Assembly (NCBI GenBank): GCA_024405335.1
Contig: JAKSOX010000001.1
Span: 1-39,781 of the forward strand
Length of the DNA: 39,781 bases
DNA from: Kiritimatiellia bacterium
GTDB taxonomy: Bacteria; Verrucomicrobiota; Kiritimatiellia; RFP12; UBA1067
Direction: 5' to 3'
Each line of letters starts with the position of its first letter. Positions within the stretch are counted from its first letter, which is position 1. Positions 1 to 31,273 of the stretch are shown piece after piece. A program made the position numbers and the translations under genes. Below the pieces are notes generated by a model. The model was not told the DNA's origin. It did not search any database and saw only the letters and a program-made list of their open reading frames with translations.

Positions 1-49
1 CCTAATCGTACCGAACGGAAACCTAATCAAAACCTAATTGGCACCTAAT
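1..49. repeat. Four copies of CCTAAT (1-6, 22-27, 33-38, 44-49); the last three are spaced exactly 11 bp apart
   Basis: Read directly from the sequence: cctaatcgta..acctaatcaa aacctaattg gcacctaatc. The helical-turn phasing suggests a protein-binding array. The function is unknown. Confidence 0.5.
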
Positions 50-359
50 CGTTGTATCCGTTTAAGCAACAGGTTGAAGCGAATGTTTTCTGTTTTTGCC
101 GGTTATCCCTTTTTTCTTGCCGGGTGCCATTTTTTTGCCCCTCGCGCGCGCTCGTAATGTGGCGCTCGGTTGGGCGGAGGGGCGGCGCAGCCGAAGTCTG
201 CGCCATGAATCCGGCCGTGCTGCTGCCGACGGACTGGATCGGCGGTGCGCCTTGCGCGGTCATCCGCGTCGCTGATCCTGACCGCGCCTGCGTGTAAGAA
301 TGGCGAATGGTATTTTGAGTGCTAATTCATTATAGTGAACATTTATATCGATTTTGCCG

Positions 360-388
360 TTGACAGAGCAGTCGCAATGTGATATTAT
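360..388 (+). promoter_or_regulatory. Sigma70-type promoter: TTGACA (360-365), 17-nt spacer, TG-extended TATTAT (383-388)
   Basis: The -35 is a perfect consensus, the spacing is 17 nt, and TG sits one nt upstream of the -10. The ATG at 397 lies 8 nt after the -10, so the transcript is probably leaderless or nearly so. Confidence 0.6.
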
Positions 389-396
389 TCACTTTA

Positions 397-603
397 ATGA
401 ATATAGGCGAGATATCGGATTATATCGTTAGGCGGCGGAAGACCTTGAAGATTTCACAGCGGGAGCTGGCGGAATTGAGCGGGGTTTCGTTGCATTCGCT
501 TTCCAACCTTGAGTCGGGGAAGGGCAATCCCACGCTGGAGAGTCTGCTTAAGGTTGCGGATACCCTGGGGGTGACGATTACCGCGGGGGTGAATCGGATA
601 TGA
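397..603 (+). CDS. XRE-family helix-turn-helix transcriptional regulator (HipB-like)
   Basis: The HTH signature is ISQRELAELSGVSLHSLSNLESGKGNPTLESL. The stop overlaps the next ATG (ATGA at 600-603). The ORF track starts at 379, but ATG 397 fits the promoter geometry better. Confidence 0.8.
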   Translation: MNIGEISDYIVRRRKTLKISQRELAELSGVSLHSLSNLESGKGNPTLESLLKVADTLGVTITAGVNRI

Positions 604-1490
604 TCGTGCTGCCGTTCACTCACGCAGATCTGAATCTGCCGGCTCCGGATACCGGAACGCCGGTGCGGTCGTCGATTTCGGGTGTTCAGGACAAGGTCGA
701 GCTGTCTCGCCGTCGCGGCGGATTCGAGGTGGTCGATCACGGCGGTGAATACGTTCTCAAGCCGATTCCGTCGACGCCGTTGCCGAAGTATCAGTCGGAA
801 GTGCCGGTGAACGAGGCGCTGACGATGTCCGTCGCGAGCAGGATCTTCGGAATCGAGACGGCGAAGCACGAGGTCGTTTCGTTTCGGGACGGAGAGCTTG
901 CCTATCTGACGAAACGGTTTGACTATCGAGGTGGACAGAAGATACGGCAGGAAGACTTCTGCCAGCTGTCCGGACGGACGGCGGCGAGTCACGGGGCCGG
1001 CTATAAATATGACGCCAGTTACGAGGAGTGCGCCGACATCCTGCGGCGGTATTGCAACGCAAGTCGCGTGGAGCTGCCCAAGCTGTTTCGCCGCATACTG
1101 TTCTGCTACCTGTTCTCCAATGGCGACGCGCATCTGAAGAACTTCTCGCTGTATGAGTCGGAGCAGGGGGATATGGTGCTGTCTCCGGCGTACGATCTGC
1201 TGGCGACGTCGGTGCATATTCCGACCGAAACGCCGTTGGCGCTGGATCTGTTCGCAGACGGACACGTCACCCCGTCCTTTGAGACTCTTGGGTTCTACTC
1301 GTCCGCGGATTTCATCGAGCTGGGGCGTCGCTTCGGACTTGCGTCGGGCGCGGTCCGTAGCGAGATGGCCAGGTTCACTTCGGCAGTGGCGGAGGTCGCG
1401 GGATTGATTGACGGTTCGTTGCTTTCGCCGGCGGCAAAGACCGATTACGCCTCCGCGTTCGCCAATCGCATCAAGGCGATCAGACAATGA
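600..1490 (+). CDS. HipA-family Ser/Thr kinase core lacking N-subdomain 1 (HipT-like toxin)
   Basis: Three kinase motifs are present: the Gly-rich loop SSISGVQDKV, the catalytic motif FSNGDAHLKNFSL, and the Mg-binding motif SPAYDLLATS. At 296 aa it is shorter than the roughly 440-aa HipA. Confidence 0.85.
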   Translation: MIVLPFTHADLNLPAPDTGTPVRSSISGVQDKVELSRRRGGFEVVDHGGEYVLKPIPSTPLPKYQSEVPVNEALTMSVASRIFGIETAKHEVVSFRDGELAYLTKRFDYRGGQKIRQEDFCQLSGRTAASHGAGYKYDASYEECADILRRYCNASRVELPKLFRRILFCYLFSNGDAHLKNFSLYESEQGDMVLSPAYDLLATSVHIPTETPLALDLFADGHVTPSFETLGFYSSADFIELGRRFGLASGAVRSEMARFTSAVAEVAGLIDGSLLSPAAKTDYASAFANRIKAIRQ

Positions 1491-1810
1491 GAAGCGGTAT
1501 TGTCTATTACCGGGATCGCATCGCCGGTCGTCTGCTGGAATCGGACGACGGATACGAGTTCGCGTATCTGCCCGAGTATCTGAACGATTCTTCGGTTCCC
1601 TCGGTTTCGCTTACCTTGCCGAAGCGTCCGGAGCCCTACCGTTCGCCGCATCTGTTCGCGTTTTTCAGCGGTTTGCTCGCCGAGGGGGTCCAGAAGGACA
1701 TTCAGTGCAGATATCTTAAAATCGACGAGAATGACGAATTCGGACGCTTGCTGCTCACGAGCCGGCTGGATTGCATCGGCGCGGTCCACGTGGTGCCGGA
1801 TGCCGGCTGA
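1487..1810 (+). CDS. HipA N-terminal subdomain protein (HipS-like, 107 aa)
   Basis: It aligns by eye to the first ~100 aa of E. coli HipA (VSLTLP, FAFFSGLLAEG, RLDCIGAVHVVPD). It overlaps the kinase stop by ATGA. Confidence 0.75.
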   Translation: MRSGIVYYRDRIAGRLLESDDGYEFAYLPEYLNDSSVPSVSLTLPKRPEPYRSPHLFAFFSGLLAEGVQKDIQCRYLKIDENDEFGRLLLTSRLDCIGAVHVVPDAG

Positions 1811-1873
1811 GGAAGCATCGGTTTCGCAATTGCCTCGAATCGCACACTTGACCAACCCATTGCGGCGCAAACG

Positions 1874-1882
1874 TGGTATACT
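1874..1882 (+). promoter_or_regulatory. Extended -10 element TGGTATACT
   Basis: The motif cGTGGTATACT lies 8 nt upstream of ATG 1891. It belongs to a recurrent motif family in this window. Confidence 0.5.
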
Positions 1883-1890
1883 ACGCGCCC

Positions 1891-2322
1891 ATGGAACAAA
1901 AGCGTTTTGTCACGGAGGACGAAGAAGGCACTTGGGCCGTCGCGCGCGAATTCGCGGCGGAACTCAAGCCCGGCGACGTGGTGTGCCTGGAAGGCGACCT
2001 CGGCGCCGGCAAGACGACGTTCACGCAGGGGCTCGCGGCCGCGCTCGGCGCCGGGCGCGCGGTGACGAGTCCCACGTTCTGCCTCGTTTCCGAACATCCC
2101 GCCCGCGATTTCATGCTGGTGCACATGGACCTCTACCGTCTGCACGGTCCGGACGACGTGCTCGCGATCGGCTGGGAGGACTATCTCGCTCAGGGCGCGG
2201 TGCTGGTGGTGGAATGGCCCGACCGCGCCGGCGAATTGATTCCGCCATCGGCCAGGCACGTGGCGTTCACCCATCTTCCCGGCGCCGACGGCTGCCGCCG
2301 CGCCATCGAATTCAACCCTTGA
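1891..2322 (+). CDS. tsaE: tRNA t6A37 threonylcarbamoyladenosine biosynthesis ATPase TsaE (YjeE)
   Basis: It has the Walker A motif GDLGAGKTTFTQGL, then SPTF and DLYRL, at the typical ~145-aa size. The GTG at 1873 given by the ORF track lies inside the -10 element, so ATG 1891 is preferred. Confidence 0.8.
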   Translation: MEQKRFVTEDEEGTWAVAREFAAELKPGDVVCLEGDLGAGKTTFTQGLAAALGAGRAVTSPTFCLVSEHPARDFMLVHMDLYRLHGPDDVLAIGWEDYLAQGAVLVVEWPDRAGELIPPSARHVAFTHLPGADGCRRAIEFNP

Positions 2323-2340
2323 TCCGCAGAACCGACTTCC

Positions 2341-3663
2341 ATGAACGTCAACAAAATCAATCCTTCCACCCTCAAGATCACGGACATGCGCTTCGCCGAC
2401 ATCGACGGCGCTCCGAAGCGCTGCACGCTGATGAAGCTCTACACCAACCAGGGGCTCGTCGGCTACGGCGAGGTGCGCGACGCCTCCAGCCGCACCTACG
2501 CGGCGATGCTCAAAAGCCGCATCCTCGGCGAGAATCCGTGCAACGTGGAGAAGATATTCCGCCGCATCAAGCAGTTCGGCGGCGATTCGCGCCAGGCCGG
2601 CGGCGTGTGCGCGGTGGAGCTCGCGTGCTGGGACTTGTGCGGCAAGGCGTGGGGCGTGCCCGTGTGGCAGCTCCTCGGCGGCAAATGGCGCGACGAGATC
2701 CGCTGCTACTGCGACACGGATTCGGAGGGCGGCGGACGCGACATGGGCCAGGCGCTCAAGGCGCGCATGGAGATGGGCTTCACGTTCCTCAAGATGGATC
2801 TCGGCATCGAGCTCATCCGCGAGATTCCCGGCGCGCTCATCGCGCCGCTCGGGTATCTCGACTACCTGAAGCGGATGAAGCACGTCGTCAACACGCCGCA
2901 CGGGTCGATCGATCCGAAGTGCATGCGCGGCGAGGCGTACGATTTGTTCAACACGGCGCACGGCTTCACCGGGATCCACGTCACCGAGAAGGGGCTCGAC
3001 CACCTCGAAAAGTACATGGCCGACGTCCGCAAGGTGGTCGGCTGGGAGGTGCCGATCGCGATCGACCACTTGGGCCACATTCCGTACGAGGACTGCGTGC
3101 AGCTGCTGCGGCGGCTCGAGAAGTACCACCTTTCCTGGGCGGAGGACGTGCTGCCGTGGCGCAACGTCGAACAGTGGAAGCAGCTCCACGCGGCCACCAC
3201 CACGCCCCTGGGGACGGGCGAGGACGTGTACCTCAAGGAAGATTTCATGCCCTTGCTCGAGTCGCACGCGCTCGCGGTGGTGCATCCCGACCTGCTCACG
3301 GCGGGCGGCTGCCTCGAAACGAAGAAAATCGGCGACGCGGCCGAGGACTTCGGCGTGCAGATGAACCTGCACATGGCCGAAAGCCCGATCGCCTGTCTGG
3401 CGGCGGTGCACGTGGCGGCGGCGACGCGCAATTTCATGGCGCTCGAACTCCACAGCGTGGACGTGCCGTGGTGGGGCGACCTCGTGAAACCGGCGCTCTC
3501 GTACGCGGGCGGCTTCATCAAGGTTCCGGACAAGCCCGGACTCGGCATCGACGCGCTGAACGAGAAGCTGGTCGAGAAACATTTGTGCAAGGATTTCCCG
3601 CCGGCGTGGGCGCCCACGGCGGAATGGGACAAGGAATGGTCCAACGACCGCCGGTGGTCGTGA
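2341..3663 (+). CDS. Enolase-superfamily enzyme (mandelate racemase/muconate lactonizing enzyme family; probable sugar-acid dehydratase)
   Basis: The N-terminal capping region is GLVGYGEV. Barrel metal-ligand-like motifs are FLKMDLG, WAEDVLP and GTGEDVY. The substrate cannot be determined. Confidence 0.65.
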
Positions 3664-3709
3664 GGGCGGTTGCGTTTTCGGGTTCGGAACACGGAAAGGA
3701 AGAAACGGC

Positions 3710-4585
3710 ATGGCTGCGGATTTGATCGACGGAAAGAAACTGGCGGCGGACCTGCGCGCGGAAATCGCGGCGGGCGTCGCGAAACTGAAAGCGGAAAAGG
3801 GCGTGACGCCCGGTCTCGCGGTGATTCTCGTGGGCGACAACCCGGCGAGCGTTTCCTACGTGACGGCCAAGGAGAAGGCGTGCGCCGAGGCGGGCATGTA
3901 CTCGCGCGAAATCCGGCTGCCGGCGGAGACGCCCGAAGCGGATTTGCTCGCGCTCATCGGCGAATTGAACGCCGACCCCGCGATCCACGGCATTCTCGTG
4001 CAGCTGCCGCTGCCGAAGGGCGTTTCCGAAAAGCGCGTGATCGACGCCATCGCCGCCGAGAAGGACGTGGACGGCTTCACGCCCGTGAACGTGGGCAAGA
4101 TGCTCATCGGCGAGGAATGCTTCCTGCCGTGCACGCCGCACGGCATCGTCAAGCTCGTCCAGGTCACGGGCATGGACCTCAAGGGCAAGCACGCCGTGGT
4201 GATCGGCCGTTCGAACATCGTGGGCAAGCCCGTGGCGGTGCTGCTGTCGCGCAAGGACGTGAACGCCACGGTGACCATGTGCCACACGGGCACGAAGGAC
4301 CTCGCCGCGTTCACGAAGACGGCCGACGTGGTGGTGGTGGCGGCGGGCCGTCCGAACACGCTGACGGGCGACATGCTCAAGCCGGGCGCCGTGGTGATCG
4401 ACGTGGGCGTCAACCGCGTGCCGGACGCGTCCAAGCCGAAGGGATACCGTCTCTGCGGCGACGCGGACTTCGCGAGCTGTTCCGAAGTCGCCTCCGCCAT
4501 CACGCCCGTGCCGGGCGGCGTCGGCCCGATGACGATCACGATGCTGTTGTGGAACACGCTGGAGGCGGCATGTCGCGCGCGTTGA
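3710..4585 (+). CDS. folD: Bifunctional methylenetetrahydrofolate dehydrogenase/methenyl-THF cyclohydrolase FolD
   Basis: Motifs present are [42 protein letters not shown] and [11 protein letters not shown] Shine-Dalgarno sequence (aaaggaag) lies upstream. Confidence 0.9.
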
Positions 4586-4935
4586 CGGTGGCCGGCGCCG
4601 TGGGCATGCTGGTGGTGAGCAACCTGTTCATGCTCATGGCCTGGTATTGGCACATGAAGCCCGGCAGCTTCATCGGCCGCCAACCGCTGTGGGCCGTGAT
4701 CCTGCTCAGCTGGTGCATCGCATTGCTCGAATACGTCGTGATGATTCCCGCGAACCGCATCGGCGGCGAAGCCGGGCTCACGGTGGGCCAGCTCAAAATC
4801 GTCCAGGAAGTGGTCACGGTGGGCGTGTTCATCCCGTTCGTGGTATTTTTCATGGGCGAGAAGTGGCGTTGGGACTATTTGTGGGCGCTCCTCTGCATGG
4901 TGGGCGCCGTCTACTTCGTCAACCGCGCCCGCTGA
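4570..4935 (+). CDS. Small DMT-superfamily membrane protein (DUF486-like, 121 aa)
   Basis: It has four hydrophobic segments. It is the C-terminal part of ORF 3670-4935, starting at ATG 4570, and overlaps the folD end by 16 nt. Confidence 0.6.
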
Positions 4936-4942
4936 TTCCCCG

Positions 4943-4966
4943 CGCCCGCGATCATCGGCGCGGGCG
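4943..4966 (+). terminator. GC hairpin (8-bp stem CGCCCGCG/CGCGGGCG, 8-nt loop) after the DMT gene; possibly a weak terminator
   Basis: The stem was read directly from the sequence. No immediate U-tract follows, so terminator function is uncertain. Confidence 0.3.
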
Positions 4967-4997
4967 ACATGCGCCCGTTGAAGTTTTGTCGCGGACG

Positions 4998-5006
4998 TGA
5001 TACAAT
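4998..5006 (+). promoter_or_regulatory. Extended -10 element TGATACAAT upstream of tig
   Basis: ggaCGTGATACAAT resembles ggaCGTGGTATAAT at 16815. It sits 49 nt upstream of tig ATG 5056, which has its own Shine-Dalgarno sequence (gaaagg). Confidence 0.45.
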
Positions 5007-5055
5007 AGCCACTCATTTTTTTCAAAGGCGGTTTTTCCAGAAGAAAGGCGAACAA

Positions 5056-6261
5056 ATGAAAGTTGACAAGAAAGTCGAAAAGAACGCGTGCGTGGTGTCC
5101 CTCACGGTGAAGGCCGAGCCGGACGAAATCAAGGACGCCTGCAAGAAAGTCCTGAACGCGTTCGTGCGCAACGGCAGCATCCCCGGGTTTCGTCCGGGCA
5201 AGGCGCCGGTGGAGGTCGTGAAGAACAAATTCGCGGCGGAAATCAAGCAGGAGACGCAGGGCGAATGCTTCCGCATGCTGTATCCGAAGGCCCTTGAAGA
5301 GGCCGGGCTGAACCCCGTGGCGATGGAAGGCGTCACGGAGGCGACGCTCGCCCCGGAAACCGGTTTCTCCTTCACGGTGATCGTGGAAGTGCGCCCGGAA
5401 TACAAGCTGCCCAAGTACAAGGGCATCTCCATCAAGCCCGGCGACACGGCGGTGTCGGAAGAAGCGGTGACCAAGCAGATCGAAGATTTCCGCAAGGCGT
5501 TCGCCAAGTTCGAGGACGCCAAGGAAGGCGACGCGATTTCCGAGGGCGACTTCGTGCAGTTCGACTACGACGGCACGCTCAAGGGCAAGCCGCTCGCGGA
5601 GGTGGTGGCCGACGTGCCGGCCGTGTGCGGCGCCAAGGGCTACTGGACGCAGCTCGAAGAAGGGCGCTTCCTGCCCGAAATCCTCGAAGCGCTCAAGGGA
5701 CTCAAGGTCGGCGACGAAACGACGGCGAAGGTCAAGTTCGCCAAGGACAACGCTCCCGAGCCGCTCAAGGGCAAGACGTGCGAATACGCGCTCAAGGTGC
5801 TCGCGTTCCGCAAGCGGCAGCTGCCGGACGACGCGAAGTTCGTCGAAGACGCCAAGGCCGAGTCCATGGAAAAGCTCCGCGCCGACACGCGCGCGCGCCT
5901 CGAAAAGCAGGCGGCCGACGCCGAAGCCGCGAACCGCAAGAACCAGGCGATCGAAGCGCTCGTCAAGAAAGCCGATTTCGACGTGCCGCCGTCGCTCGTC
6001 CAGCGCCAGACCGAGGCGTACCTCAGCCAGCTCGCGCAGCAGATGCAGTACGCGGGCGTGACCAGCGACTACATCGAGCAGCACCGCGAGGAAATCCTCA
6101 AGGACGCCACCGAACGCGCGACCACGCAGGTGCGCCTTTCCTACGTTCTTCTCGACATCGCCGACGCCGAGAAGATCGAAGTCGACGAGAAGGACGAAGC
6201 CAAGCGCGACCAGGCCCGCGCCGAAAAGACGCTCGACTTCATTCTCGCGAACGCGAAGTGA
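5056..6261 (+). CDS. tig: Trigger factor
   Basis: The N-terminal ribosome-binding region is [12 protein letters not shown]. The gene sits in the conserved tig-clpP-clpX order. The start is taken at MKVDKK. Confidence 0.85.
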
Positions 6262-30370: not shown

Positions 30371-31273
30371 GTGAAACAGGCCTTCACATTGCTGGAACTG
30401 CTTACGGTCATCGCCATCACGGCGATGATGGCAACCATTTCCATGGGCGCCTACCGCGGCGTCGTGCGCGGCATGGAGGACCGCGGCGTGATCGCGTCCG
30501 CCACGCTCGTCGTCTCCGCGGCCCAGAACCGCGCCCGCGCCGACCACGCCTTGACGGCCGTCTTTTTCTACAACGTGATTTCGCAGGAGGGCGACGACTC
30601 GCCCGAAAACAAAACGGATTACATGGCCCACGGCGAAGCCGTCGCGGTGCGCGGCATCGGGCGCATCACGCGCGTGTTCGGGAACTATCTGGCGGACGAG
30701 TGCAACGACCTCGAGCAGGAGTACGCGATTCTGGATTCCAAGGATCCGGTGGTGAAGAACCCGAAAACCAAGGCGTCCGGCCGCAACGCCACGGGCGCGG
30801 CGCAGATGATGCGGCTTTTCAAGTTGACGTCCGAACGGGACGCGCAGGGCAGCCGGAAGCTTCCCTGTTCCAAAGTGCTCATGAACGCCATCGTGGGCTC
30901 CGATTTGTTCCCCATGGAAGATTTCTATTTCGAGCCGCCCGTGGACGCGGACGGCAATCCCGTCCGGGAAATTCCGGGCGTTTGCTTCAAGGTCGCGGAC
31001 GCGAACGGCGTGTCCTGGCAACTGGGCGACGTGTACGCGGTGTCGTTCAAGGACACGGTGCTGCCCAACGGCTACGTGTTCGGTTCCAAATCCGACTTGC
31101 CGTCGTCGCTCGACGATCCGGTCAAGTTCGTGAAATCGATCGTGTTCGATCCCGACGCGACGGGCGCCGCGCTCGAGGGATCCGTAGACGTCCACTCCAT
31201 CCGTGCCGTCGAAGGCAAGCGCGTCGAGTTGCGCAAAGTGGGAACTTCGTCCACAACCACGGGGAATCTGTGA
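30371..31273 (+). CDS. Pseudopilin-like protein (300 aa, GspH-like position)
   Basis: It has a GTG start and the N-terminus MKQA|FTLLELLTVIAITAMM (Ala at -1). Confidence 0.65.
   Translation: MKQAFTLLELLTVIAITAMMATISMGAYRGVVRGMEDRGVIASATLVVSAAQNRARADHALTAVFFYNVISQEGDDSPENKTDYMAHGEAVAVRGIGRITRVFGNYLADECNDLEQEYAILDSKDPVVKNPKTKASGRNATGAAQMMRLFKLTSERDAQGSRKLPCSKVLMNAIVGSDLFPMEDFYFEPPVDADGNPVREIPGVCFKVADANGVSWQLGDVYAVSFKDTVLPNGYVFGSKSDLPSSLDDPVKFVKSIVFDPDATGAALEGSVDVHSIRAVEGKRVELRKVGTSSTTTGNL

Follow-up and report, generated by a model that had tools for sequence, protein, structure and literature searches.

Canonical hipBA operons encode a kinase of ~440 aa to which N-subdomain 1 is fused. In toxin-antitoxin operons the order of the genes is taken to be important, since how much toxin is made relative to antitoxin depends on it. 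The HipT kinase of E. coli O127 has TrpS as its target.

The closest solved relative of the locus described here is the HipBST system of Legionella pneumophila (Lpg2368-70; PDB 7VKB, 8EZR; Lin et al. 2023, PMC10653801), which has the same three component types. Its genes are ordered hipB-hipS-hipT (B-S-T). HipS serves as antitoxin, and the DNA-binding repressor is HipB, with three 18-nt operator sites separated by 53-bp gaps. The HipBST system of E. coli O127:H6 (Vang Nielsen et al. 2019; PDB 7AB3-5; PMC10627512) shares the tripartite split-HipA architecture and is also B-S-T. A Ser-psi-Ser loop has been described for its HipT, and the inhibitory Trp65 of its HipS is inserted into the kinase active site.

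The survey of Gerdes, Baerentsen and Brodersen (2021, PMC8262856) defines Hip families by gene organisation. Its catalogue already includes types in which a short kinase comes first and a HipS or HipS-like part follows it, either downstream or at its C-terminal side: hipJS, hipIN and hipL, with 2, 14 and 14 of 1,239 modules. These types are without a HipB/HTH gene, and a HIRAN domain is present in HipN and HipL (hipL being a kinase-HipS-HIRAN fusion). The survey assigns the kinases of all three types to its main clade XI, with HipJ next to HipI. The reversed-order hipAB and hipEB operons, in which the toxin changes places with the HTH antitoxin, offer a precedent for independent and repeated order flips in Hip operons.

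The window analysed here, a 39,781-nt stretch of a Kiritimatiellae metagenome-assembled genome (MAG), contains a module in which hipB remains first and hipS and hipT have changed places (hipB-hipT-hipS, or B-T-S). Our reading, at a probability of about 0.8, is that it belongs to the Legionella-type (HipBST-Lp-like) subfamily of HipBST and is a functional type II toxin-antitoxin cassette. All of its parts are of known kinds, and neither a new protein family nor a new biochemical principle is involved.

Architecture of the module

Three overlapping plus-strand ORFs (379/397-603, 600-1490 and 1487-1810) were confirmed, with ATGA overlaps at 600-603 and 1487-1490 joining each to its neighbor. ORFs, overlaps and Pfam domains together bear out the preliminary description of a HipBST-like HTH-kinase-HipS module. 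The start assigned there to the HTH gene, GTG 379, has to be given up, as it sits inside the promoter, 3' of the -35 hexamer and 5' of the -10; the true start is ATG 397. The 68-aa protein that begins there is identical to GenBank MCQ2388081.1, and gene calls for HipB in relatives (65-68 aa) agree with this start. Coordinates are collected in Table 1.

Table 1. Features of the hipB-hipT-hipS module in the window
Feature	Position	Strand	Remarks
Mobile hipB-hipT-hipS cassette	324..1803	+	block common to other contigs (blastn)
Distal palindromic operator candidate TTCATTATAGTGAA	326..339		centre ~64 nt upstream of hipB ATG
Sigma-70-type promoter	360..388	+	TTGACA (360-365), 17-nt spacer, TATTAT (383-388), extended -10 TG
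Proximal palindromic operator candidate TTCACTTTAATGAA	388..401		from last -10 base, includes hipB start codon
hipB, 68-aa Xre/HTH_3 repressor (predicted)	397..603	+	Pfam HTH_3 1.1e-14
hipT-type Ser/Thr kinase toxin (predicted), 296 aa	600..1490	+	Pfam HipA_C 2e-42
hipS, 107-aa stand-alone HipA N-subdomain 1 homologue, presumed antitoxin	1487..1810	+	Couple_hipA 7e-20

The near-consensus sigma70 promoter noticed earlier stands, matching at 11 of 12 hexamer positions in addition to its extended -10. In most relatives, the region ahead of hipB shows, by eye, a -35 of TTGAC type and an A/T-rich -10 hexamer in the corresponding position. The hipB ATG follows the -10 hexamer by 8 nt, so that the mRNA is probably leaderless. 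A search for an internal promoter upstream of hipS found none; the sole other promoter-like site (1695-1722) falls inside hipS.

The palindrome TTCAN6TGAA occurs three times in the window (0.19 expected). Two copies lie on either side of the promoter in B-T-S and B-S-T modules alike, and among close relatives, whichever their gene order, a site mostly begins 67-71 nt upstream of the ATG (56 nt in locus L019). The distal candidate forms one arm of the inverted repeat I1. A small HTH gene placed first, with operator-like repeats in the promoter that its product is predicted to bind, is the arrangement of a HipBST operon, and evenly spaced palindromes upstream of hipB are a likeness to Legionella, although the window has two candidates ~62 bp apart.

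Component proteins

The HipA-family kinase core, first recognized by its Gly-rich loop and its NGDAHLKN and PAYDLLAT motifs, is confirmed by the HipA_C match and by the location of every motif: S25-I26-S27 of RSSISGVQDK are encoded at 672-680, the catalytic Asp176 of NGDAHLKN is GAC at 1125-1127, and PAYDLLAT spans residues 196-203. Catalytic positions are all invariant in alignments of the relatives (G28, V29, K32, K54, N174, D176, K180, N181 and D199), as are S25 and S27 across 34 relatives. S25 aligns to Ser54 of Legionella HipT, HipT(Lp). The Gly-rich loop of the window kinase reads Ser-Ile-Ser, as in O127, and that of Legionella Ser-Val-Gln; the Ser-psi-Ser site common to the O127 and window kinases is thus present, and autophosphorylation is predicted.

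N-subdomain 1 is missing from this kinase, as had been proposed. Only 22 residues (~30 fewer than in Legionella HipT) precede the Gly-rich loop, and the protein aligns from about HipA residue 165 on, the N-subdomain being a separate ORF in another frame, unlike in canonical HipA. Comparison with PDB sequences ranks HipT(Lp) first (9e-33), then O127 HipT, whose sequence similarity is lower (9e-21), and HipA (8e-7). An AF2 model (pLDDT 87.3) finds HipT(Lp) and O127 HipT as its top Foldseek hits, with TMq 0.76-0.87 (0.86-0.87 for O127 HipT).

The earlier assignment of the 107-aa ORF as a HipA N-subdomain homologue is upheld by HMM search, with TIGR03071 (2.5e-22) matching as well as Couple_hipA. 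Its best PDB sequences are HI_0666 (1.3e-10), HipS(Lp) (2e-10) and O127 HipS (2.8e-7). The AF2 model (pLDDT 92.7) superimposes in Foldseek on Legionella HipS chain 7vkb_B with TM 0.85/0.89 and rmsd 1.7, the TM range over HipS(Lp) and O127 HipS being 0.85-0.91, and reaches TMq ~0.8 to the HipA N-terminus. Where O127 HipS has Trp65, window HipS has Val (AEGVQKD) and HipS(Lp) has Ile, a Trp being absent from both; the O127 neutralization mechanism therefore cannot apply literally. In Legionella, HipS neutralization does not use Trp (PMC10653801), and this Legionella-type neutralization is assumed here as the model for window HipS.

HipB matches TIGR03070 (couple_hipB) at 2.8e-16 and 59.2 bits; the curated cut-off is higher, at 71.65. 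Purifying selection acts on all three genes, dN/dS being 0.09 for hipB (against the related locus L155), 0.16 for hipT and 0.09 for hipS.

Gene-order survey and origin of the swap

Besides the window, ten loci have hipT followed by hipS; they represent eight distinct modules and come from ten other samples or assemblies. The B-T-S loci are the window, L005, L099, L012/13, L155, L156, L157 and L158/159; the remaining one, L096, has the T-S order without hipB. Kinases of this clade are 65-93% identical to that of the window.

Outside the clade, B-T-S occurs in 0 of ~85 split modules sampled. A scan of genome contigs with a single-protein query gave four loci, all B-S-T. Approximately 68 of 80 metagenome loci are complete B-S-T modules; the remainder end at a contig edge, and in none of these does hipS lie 3' of the kinase wherever sequence continues past it. 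Viral contigs contribute ~17 split modules, again B-S-T. The suspected rarity of the order is therefore supported, with B-T-S confined to one small clade. Its novelty stands only in part: kinase-then-HipS order is already published for hipJS, hipIN and hipL, but neither together with hipB nor in the lineage of the window kinase.

The interpretation of the layout as a circularly permuted split of hipA is, as worded, not supported by comparison with relatives. HipB, the kinase and HipS each have orthologues in ordinary B-S-T modules of related Kiritimatiellae, the identities being 53-60%, 57-64% and 59-65%, respectively (the B-S-T neighbors by kinase identity are P0021, 64%; P0022, 61%; P0025, 59%; and P0097, 57%). 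Identity declines in parallel for the three, from 69 to 53% (HipB), 73 to 57% (kinase) and 75 to 59% (HipS), and more distant relatives are all B-S-T. From this orthology we infer that B-T-S arose by a later exchange of hipS and hipT in a HipBST lineage whose hipA was already split, and is no independent split of hipA.

The swap most likely arose once, because a 3-codon extension of hipB is common to all B-T-S members having hipB, and the ...Q-CAATGA-hipS junction is identical in all clade members, the hipB-less L096 included. Bootstrapped neighbor-joining trees (Kimura distances) give a single origin poor support: for the concatenated tree, 36% of bootstraps recover the B-T-S group as monophyletic, and the kinase-only tree pairs P0021 (B-S-T) with P0019 (B-T-S). 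No kinase remnant, as might be left by a B-S-T-S-T duplication intermediate, was found 3' of hipS, where 1811-1890 is just the short gap ahead of tsaE. In L096, the ORF that follows hipS shows no similarity to the kinase and no Pfam/NCBIfam match.

Mobility of the cassette

At 1.48 kb, the module is mobile as a single unit. Blastn matches to L155, L158 and L159, at 92-93% identity, are restricted to window positions 324-1797/1803, so the right edge of the cassette falls within hipS. In L158/L159 the flanks are unrelated to the window: upstream lies the gene of a 1320-aa protein, and downstream an ORF resembling esterases. GC content is 0.573 over 324-1810 vs 0.649 for the contig, and GC3 is 0.68-0.74 in the module vs 0.81-0.91 in tsaE, a racemase-family gene and folD. 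The preliminary description had argued for horizontal acquisition from AT-rich flanks. Positions 301-500 do have 42.5% GC, but that stretch is the promoter/operator region; the evidence for mobility is now stronger, because a 93%-identical cassette stands in unrelated context and its GC3 is below that of the host. The location just upstream of tsaE is confirmed by the Pfam TsaE match (3.3e-37) of ORF 1873-2322, whose likely start is ATG 1891.

The carrier is the chromosome of the Kiritimatiellae MAG, and the module begins 323 nt from the contig end. No tRNA was found near the module, no transposase or integrase adjoining the cassette and, by eye, no direct repeats flanking it; the window contains no Rfam families. 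PADLOC and PHROGs searches returned weak or generic matches only.

Proposed mechanism and alternative readings

By analogy with the known HipBST systems, HipB dimers would bind both TTCAN6TGAA palindromes around the promoter and repress it. HipS would bind HipT in trans, at the place of HipA N-subdomain 1, and hold it inactive, and the Ser25-Ile-Ser27 loop would permit control by autophosphorylation. HipS would be translated after HipT, not before it, by termination-reinitiation at the ATGA overlap. No good Shine-Dalgarno sequence was found ahead of hipS (there is an AAGG 11 nt upstream), so that HipS may be made in at most equimolar amounts, an uncommon situation for an antitoxin. The cassette is possibly an abortive-infection cassette as well.

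Such late translation, from a site without a strong ribosome-binding site of its own, could also mean that roles changed with the swap: HipB, with or without autophosphorylation, would become the effective antitoxin, or HipS would be a positive or substrate-directing subunit made after the kinase. Legionella HipB does bind HipT directly as well (PMC10653801), and the C-terminus of HipS is free and variable in the B-T-S clade (103-136 aa). This change of roles is nevertheless improbable, as the HipS core (16 invariant and 22 nearly invariant columns, dN/dS as given above) is as conserved as in B-S-T relatives, the 68-aa HipB is an HTH protein of minimal size that lacks an additional toxin-binding tail, and no clade-specific substitution is seen in the kinase motifs.

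A descent independent of hipBST is very unlikely. The module would then be a hipJS-type member of kinase clade XI (Gerdes et al. 2021), derived for example from hipIN by loss of HIRAN, with the HTH gene gained later. Its kinase gene is indeed followed by a stand-alone HipS gene, its 296-aa kinase fits the HipJ-type range of 279-321 aa, and L096 has precisely T-S without an HTH gene. However, hipJS is defined by the lack of a DNA-binding partner (PMC8262856), whereas here an HTH gene overlaps the kinase start, and HipB, the promoter and both operator candidates are common to the window and its B-S-T relatives. Every recovered relative, near or far, is B-S-T with orthologous HipB and HipS, and the window kinase clusters among the B-S-T HipT kinases sampled, which is indirect evidence against membership of main clade XI. 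PADLOC model PDC-M03A matches the kinase at only 1.6e-4, vs 9e-33 for HipT(Lp). The PDC-M03A/B pair is probably of the hipIN type; it comprises a ~280-aa kinase and a 245-aa protein whose N-terminus is HipS-like.

A module so near the end of a MAG contig might be an assembly chimera, or a functionless, pseudogenized remnant. There is hardly any chance of this: the ORFs are intact and the motifs invariant, and a decayed or chimeric locus is refuted by the recurrence of the order in the other samples and assemblies and by purifying selection (dN/dS 0.09-0.16).

Significance of the gene order

HipBST has the order hipB-hipS-hipT, from which the module departs. Under the rule of Gerdes et al. (PMC8262856), hipB-hipT-hipS would therefore be a separate organisation, the eleventh beside the ten that the catalogue of HipA-family kinases lists, and one now shown to move as a cassette whose right edge lies inside one of its own genes. 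The orthologous modules differ essentially only in whether hipS comes before or after the kinase; promoter, operator candidates and ATGA couplings are alike. The clade thus permits a clean test of the effect of order on HipS:HipT ratio, activation threshold and phenotype. It is doubtful that the swap is an adaptive rewiring, in which reinitiation-limited HipS would create a hair-trigger switch (e.g. for abortive infection) checked mainly by HipT autophosphorylation and HipB repression. If it were, these B-S-T and B-T-S modules, of the same class and at ~60-65% identity, would constitute a natural experiment on gene order and the toxin:antitoxin ratio.

Gene content and a HipBST assignment

Judged from sequence, the hipB-hipT-hipS module near the contig start is a real, horizontally mobile and functional-looking HipBST-family cassette, with a rare gene order (B-T-S) restricted to a small clade whose kinases are at least 65% identical to its own. 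The window is a complete contig (39,781 bp) from a metagenome-assembled genome that NCBI lists as Kiritimatiellae bacterium, and GenBank gives the module proteins (MCQ2388081.1 to MCQ2388083.1) generic product names ("helix-turn-helix domain-containing", "HipA domain-containing", "HipA N-terminal domain-containing"). Profile searches agree with the preliminary description's reading of an HTH protein, a kinase and a HipA N-subdomain, including the Pfam HipA_C and Couple_hipA models it had named as a check; its three overlapping ORFs, kinase motifs and near-consensus sigma70 promoter are likewise borne out. Its hipB start, GTG 379, is wrong. That codon falls in the promoter spacer, after the -35 and before the -10 hexamer. 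The genuine start is ATG 397; the 68-aa product is exactly the GenBank protein, and HTH genes called in all relatives encode a consistent 65-68 aa.

Features of the hipB-hipT-hipS module (window coordinates unless residues are stated)
Feature	Position	Strand	Evidence or remark
Distal 14-nt palindrome TTCATTATAGTGAA	326-339		operator candidate, upstream side of promoter
Promoter TTGACA / TATTAT	360-365 / 383-388	+	17-nt spacer; 11/12 positions match; extended -10 TG
Proximal 14-nt palindrome TTCACTTTAATGAA	388-401		operator candidate, downstream side of promoter
hipB (HTH ORF)	379/397-603	+	HTH_3, 1.1e-14
ATGA overlap, hipB/hipT	600-603
hipT (kinase ORF)	600-1490	+	HipA_C, 2e-42
Kinase Ser25-Ile26-Ser27	672-680	+	loop motif
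Kinase Asp176 of NGDAHLKN	1125-1127	+	motif
Kinase PAYDLLAT	residues 196-203		motif
ATGA overlap, hipT/hipS	1487-1490
hipS (last ORF)	1487-1810	+	Couple_hipA, 7e-20; TIGR03071, 2.5e-22

Among solved structures, the kinase sequence matches HipT of Legionella (9e-33) and of E. coli O127 (9e-21), and full-length HipA at just 8e-7, in an alignment that begins near residue 165. Its AF2 model (pLDDT 87.3, below 50 in the Gly-rich loop, residues 21-29) is closest to the same two HipT structures (TMq 0.76-0.87), with HipA next. The 107-aa protein finds HipS of H. influenzae (1.3e-10), Legionella (2e-10) and O127 (2.8e-7), and the HipA N-terminus at 0.026; its model (pLDDT 92.7) superposes on Legionella HipS (TM 0.85/0.89, rmsd 1.7 A), followed by O127 HipS and HipA N-subdomain 1. 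By two sequence features the module stands between these characterised systems: the position of the inhibitory Trp65 of O127 HipS aligns with Val here and with Ile in Legionella, whereas the kinase loop (Ser-Ile-Ser) is of the type seen in the O127 "S-psi-S" group.

Expression signals

TTCAN6TGAA palindromes occur three times in the window against 0.19 expected. In most close relatives of either gene order, copies of this palindrome begin about 70 nt and 9 nt 5' of the hipB ATG, with a TTGAC-type -35 and an A/T-rich -10 between them. Here the first base of the proximal copy is the final one of the -10 hexamer, and the hipB start codon falls within the copy. This arrangement of predicted operators parallels Legionella HipBST, where HipS is the antitoxin, HipB binds DNA, and evenly spaced HipB operators were demonstrated by EMSA (PMC10653801). 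The third exact copy, TTCACGCCCGTGAA (4076-4089, inside folD), has a G+C-rich centre, which neither operator candidate has, and probably matches by chance.

Since the hipB ATG lies only 8 nt after the -10 hexamer, its mRNA is probably leaderless. In the module sequence, hipS was found to have neither an internal promoter nor a strong ribosome-binding site ahead of it, and HipS is probably made by reinitiation where its gene overlaps hipT (ATGA). The likely start of the downstream tsaE (ATG 1891) has the geometry of hipB (-10 end 388, ATG 397), lying 8 nt past an extended -10, TGgTATACT (1874-1882), with no Shine-Dalgarno before it; the organism may often make mRNAs without a leader.

Gene order among relatives

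The kinase has thousands of homologues; a graded series of relatives, from near to distant, was read for genomic context. The order B-T-S is found in L155 (93% kinase identity), L156 (75%), L005 (73%), L099 (72%), L157 (70%), L012/L013 (65%, another Kiritimatiellae MAG) and L158/L159, reached through a HipS 96% identical to that of the window; L096 (67%) has hipT-hipS without an HTH gene. The closest B-S-T modules are L097 (64%), L010 (61%), L014 (59%) and L006 (57%), followed by four loci in distant genomes (32-47%). About 68 of the 80 best metagenome loci are complete B-S-T modules; contig ends cut the others, and no sequence 3' of their kinases contains hipS. IMG/VR viral contigs carry about 17 split modules, all B-S-T, the remainder being fused hipBA. 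The gene-order survey proposed in the preliminary description thus places B-T-S in the clade only, with none found outside it among these near, distant, metagenomic and viral loci.

Identity to the window falls in parallel for HipB (69 to 53%), HipT (73 to 57%) and HipS (75 to 59%), so the three genes are orthologous and co-inherited, S/T order alone differing. B-T-S is for this reason read as a derived S/T swap in a HipBST lineage that was split beforehand, and not as the separate, circularly permuted split of hipA suggested previously. A single origin of the swap agrees with the neighbour-joining trees but is not proved by them: B-T-S is monophyletic in just 36% of bootstraps of the concatenated tree, and the kinase-only tree pairs P0021 (a B-S-T kinase, 64%) with P0019 (B-T-S). 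Two shared derived junction characters favour a single event. All B-T-S HipB proteins have three additional C-terminal codons (GV + N/E/D-R-I/R; EVEQM in L012) where B-S-T HipB ends in ...GV, and the kinase of every B-T-S or T-S module ends in ...Q, with CAATGA leading directly into hipS.

Several relatives have peculiarities of their own. One metagenome contig (L037, 157-4091) holds a tandem pair of complete B-S-T modules (157-1857 and 2443-4091). In L096 (1-2491) the kinase starts at GTG, after a purine-rich spacer and an unrelated upstream gene, and the hipS stop codon is overlapped by an ORF of at least 207 aa (containing TTNGMLAKCW...EPYSEYYA) with no Pfam or NCBIfam match. Distant B-S-T kinases (L001-L004; alignment columns 1-40) bear an N-terminal extension of ~30-40 aa whose CxxC...(C/H)xxC pattern resembles a zinc ribbon; the extension is missing from the 296-aa Kiritimatiellae kinases, whichever their gene order.

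Published organisations frame this result. A survey of 1,239 Hip modules recognised ten organisations, with B-S-T in all 48 hipBST modules; kinase-then-HipS was already known from hipJS (2 modules), hipIN (14) and fused hipL (14), of clade XI and lacking an HTH partner (Gerdes et al., PMC8262856). HipBST-Lp was later expanded to 86 representative systems, and the available text of that paper describes no order other than B-S-T for the subfamily (PMC10653801); among the listed papers from 2023 onwards that mention HipBST (16 of 19), no title or abstract suggests B-T-S. The window module is hipBST in its proteins but not its order, and hipJS in its order but not in having a DNA-binding partner. 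Weak matches (~1e-4) to the PADLOC candidate pair PDC-M03A/B argue indirectly against clade XI affinity of its kinase. The module is a useful natural order-swap comparison, not a new system.

Mobility and selection

Three contigs, each from a different other sample (L155, L158, L159), match the window at 92-93% nucleotide identity over 324-1797/1803 only, and the flanks of L158 and L159 (a 1320-aa protein upstream, an esterase-like gene downstream) are unrelated. The cassette therefore spans from the distal operator candidate to ~7 nt short of the hipS stop codon, which accounts for the variable HipS C-termini in the clade (103 to 136 aa). Further clade members have differing neighbourhoods. 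G+C is 0.586 in the three genes (397-1810) and 0.573 over 324-1810, against 0.649 for the contig, and GC3 is 0.68-0.74 against 0.81-0.91 in tsaE, a racemase-family gene and folD. Horizontal acquisition, proposed earlier, is upheld by this composition and the shared cassette; no tRNA, integrase or transposase adjoins the module.

Between the window and L155, dN/dS is 0.09 (hipB), 0.16 (kinase) and 0.09 (hipS) at an unsaturated dS of ~0.2-0.45, with similar values in more distant pairs until dS saturates. Kinase catalytic and ATP-binding residues are all invariant among relatives, and B-T-S is retained down to 65% protein identity.

At L010 (k141_661600, 1-6000) a SLFN/AlbA_2-HATPase gene, a ThsB-TIR gene, HipBST and AbiEii follow in sequence. 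This setting resembles a defence island and may point to a function against phages in this HipBST subfamily.

Elsewhere in the window, a tRNA-SeC called by ARAGORN (31015-31104) is probably a false positive, as Rfam has no tRNA there at gathering threshold and the surrounding ORFs form a type II secretion/pseudopilin cluster (T2SSF, N_methyl). The contig start (1-52) carries four CCTAATC/T copies (at 1, 22, 33 and 44), the last three 11 nt, or about one helical turn, apart; these may be iterons to which a protein binds, or may be what broke the assembly at this point.
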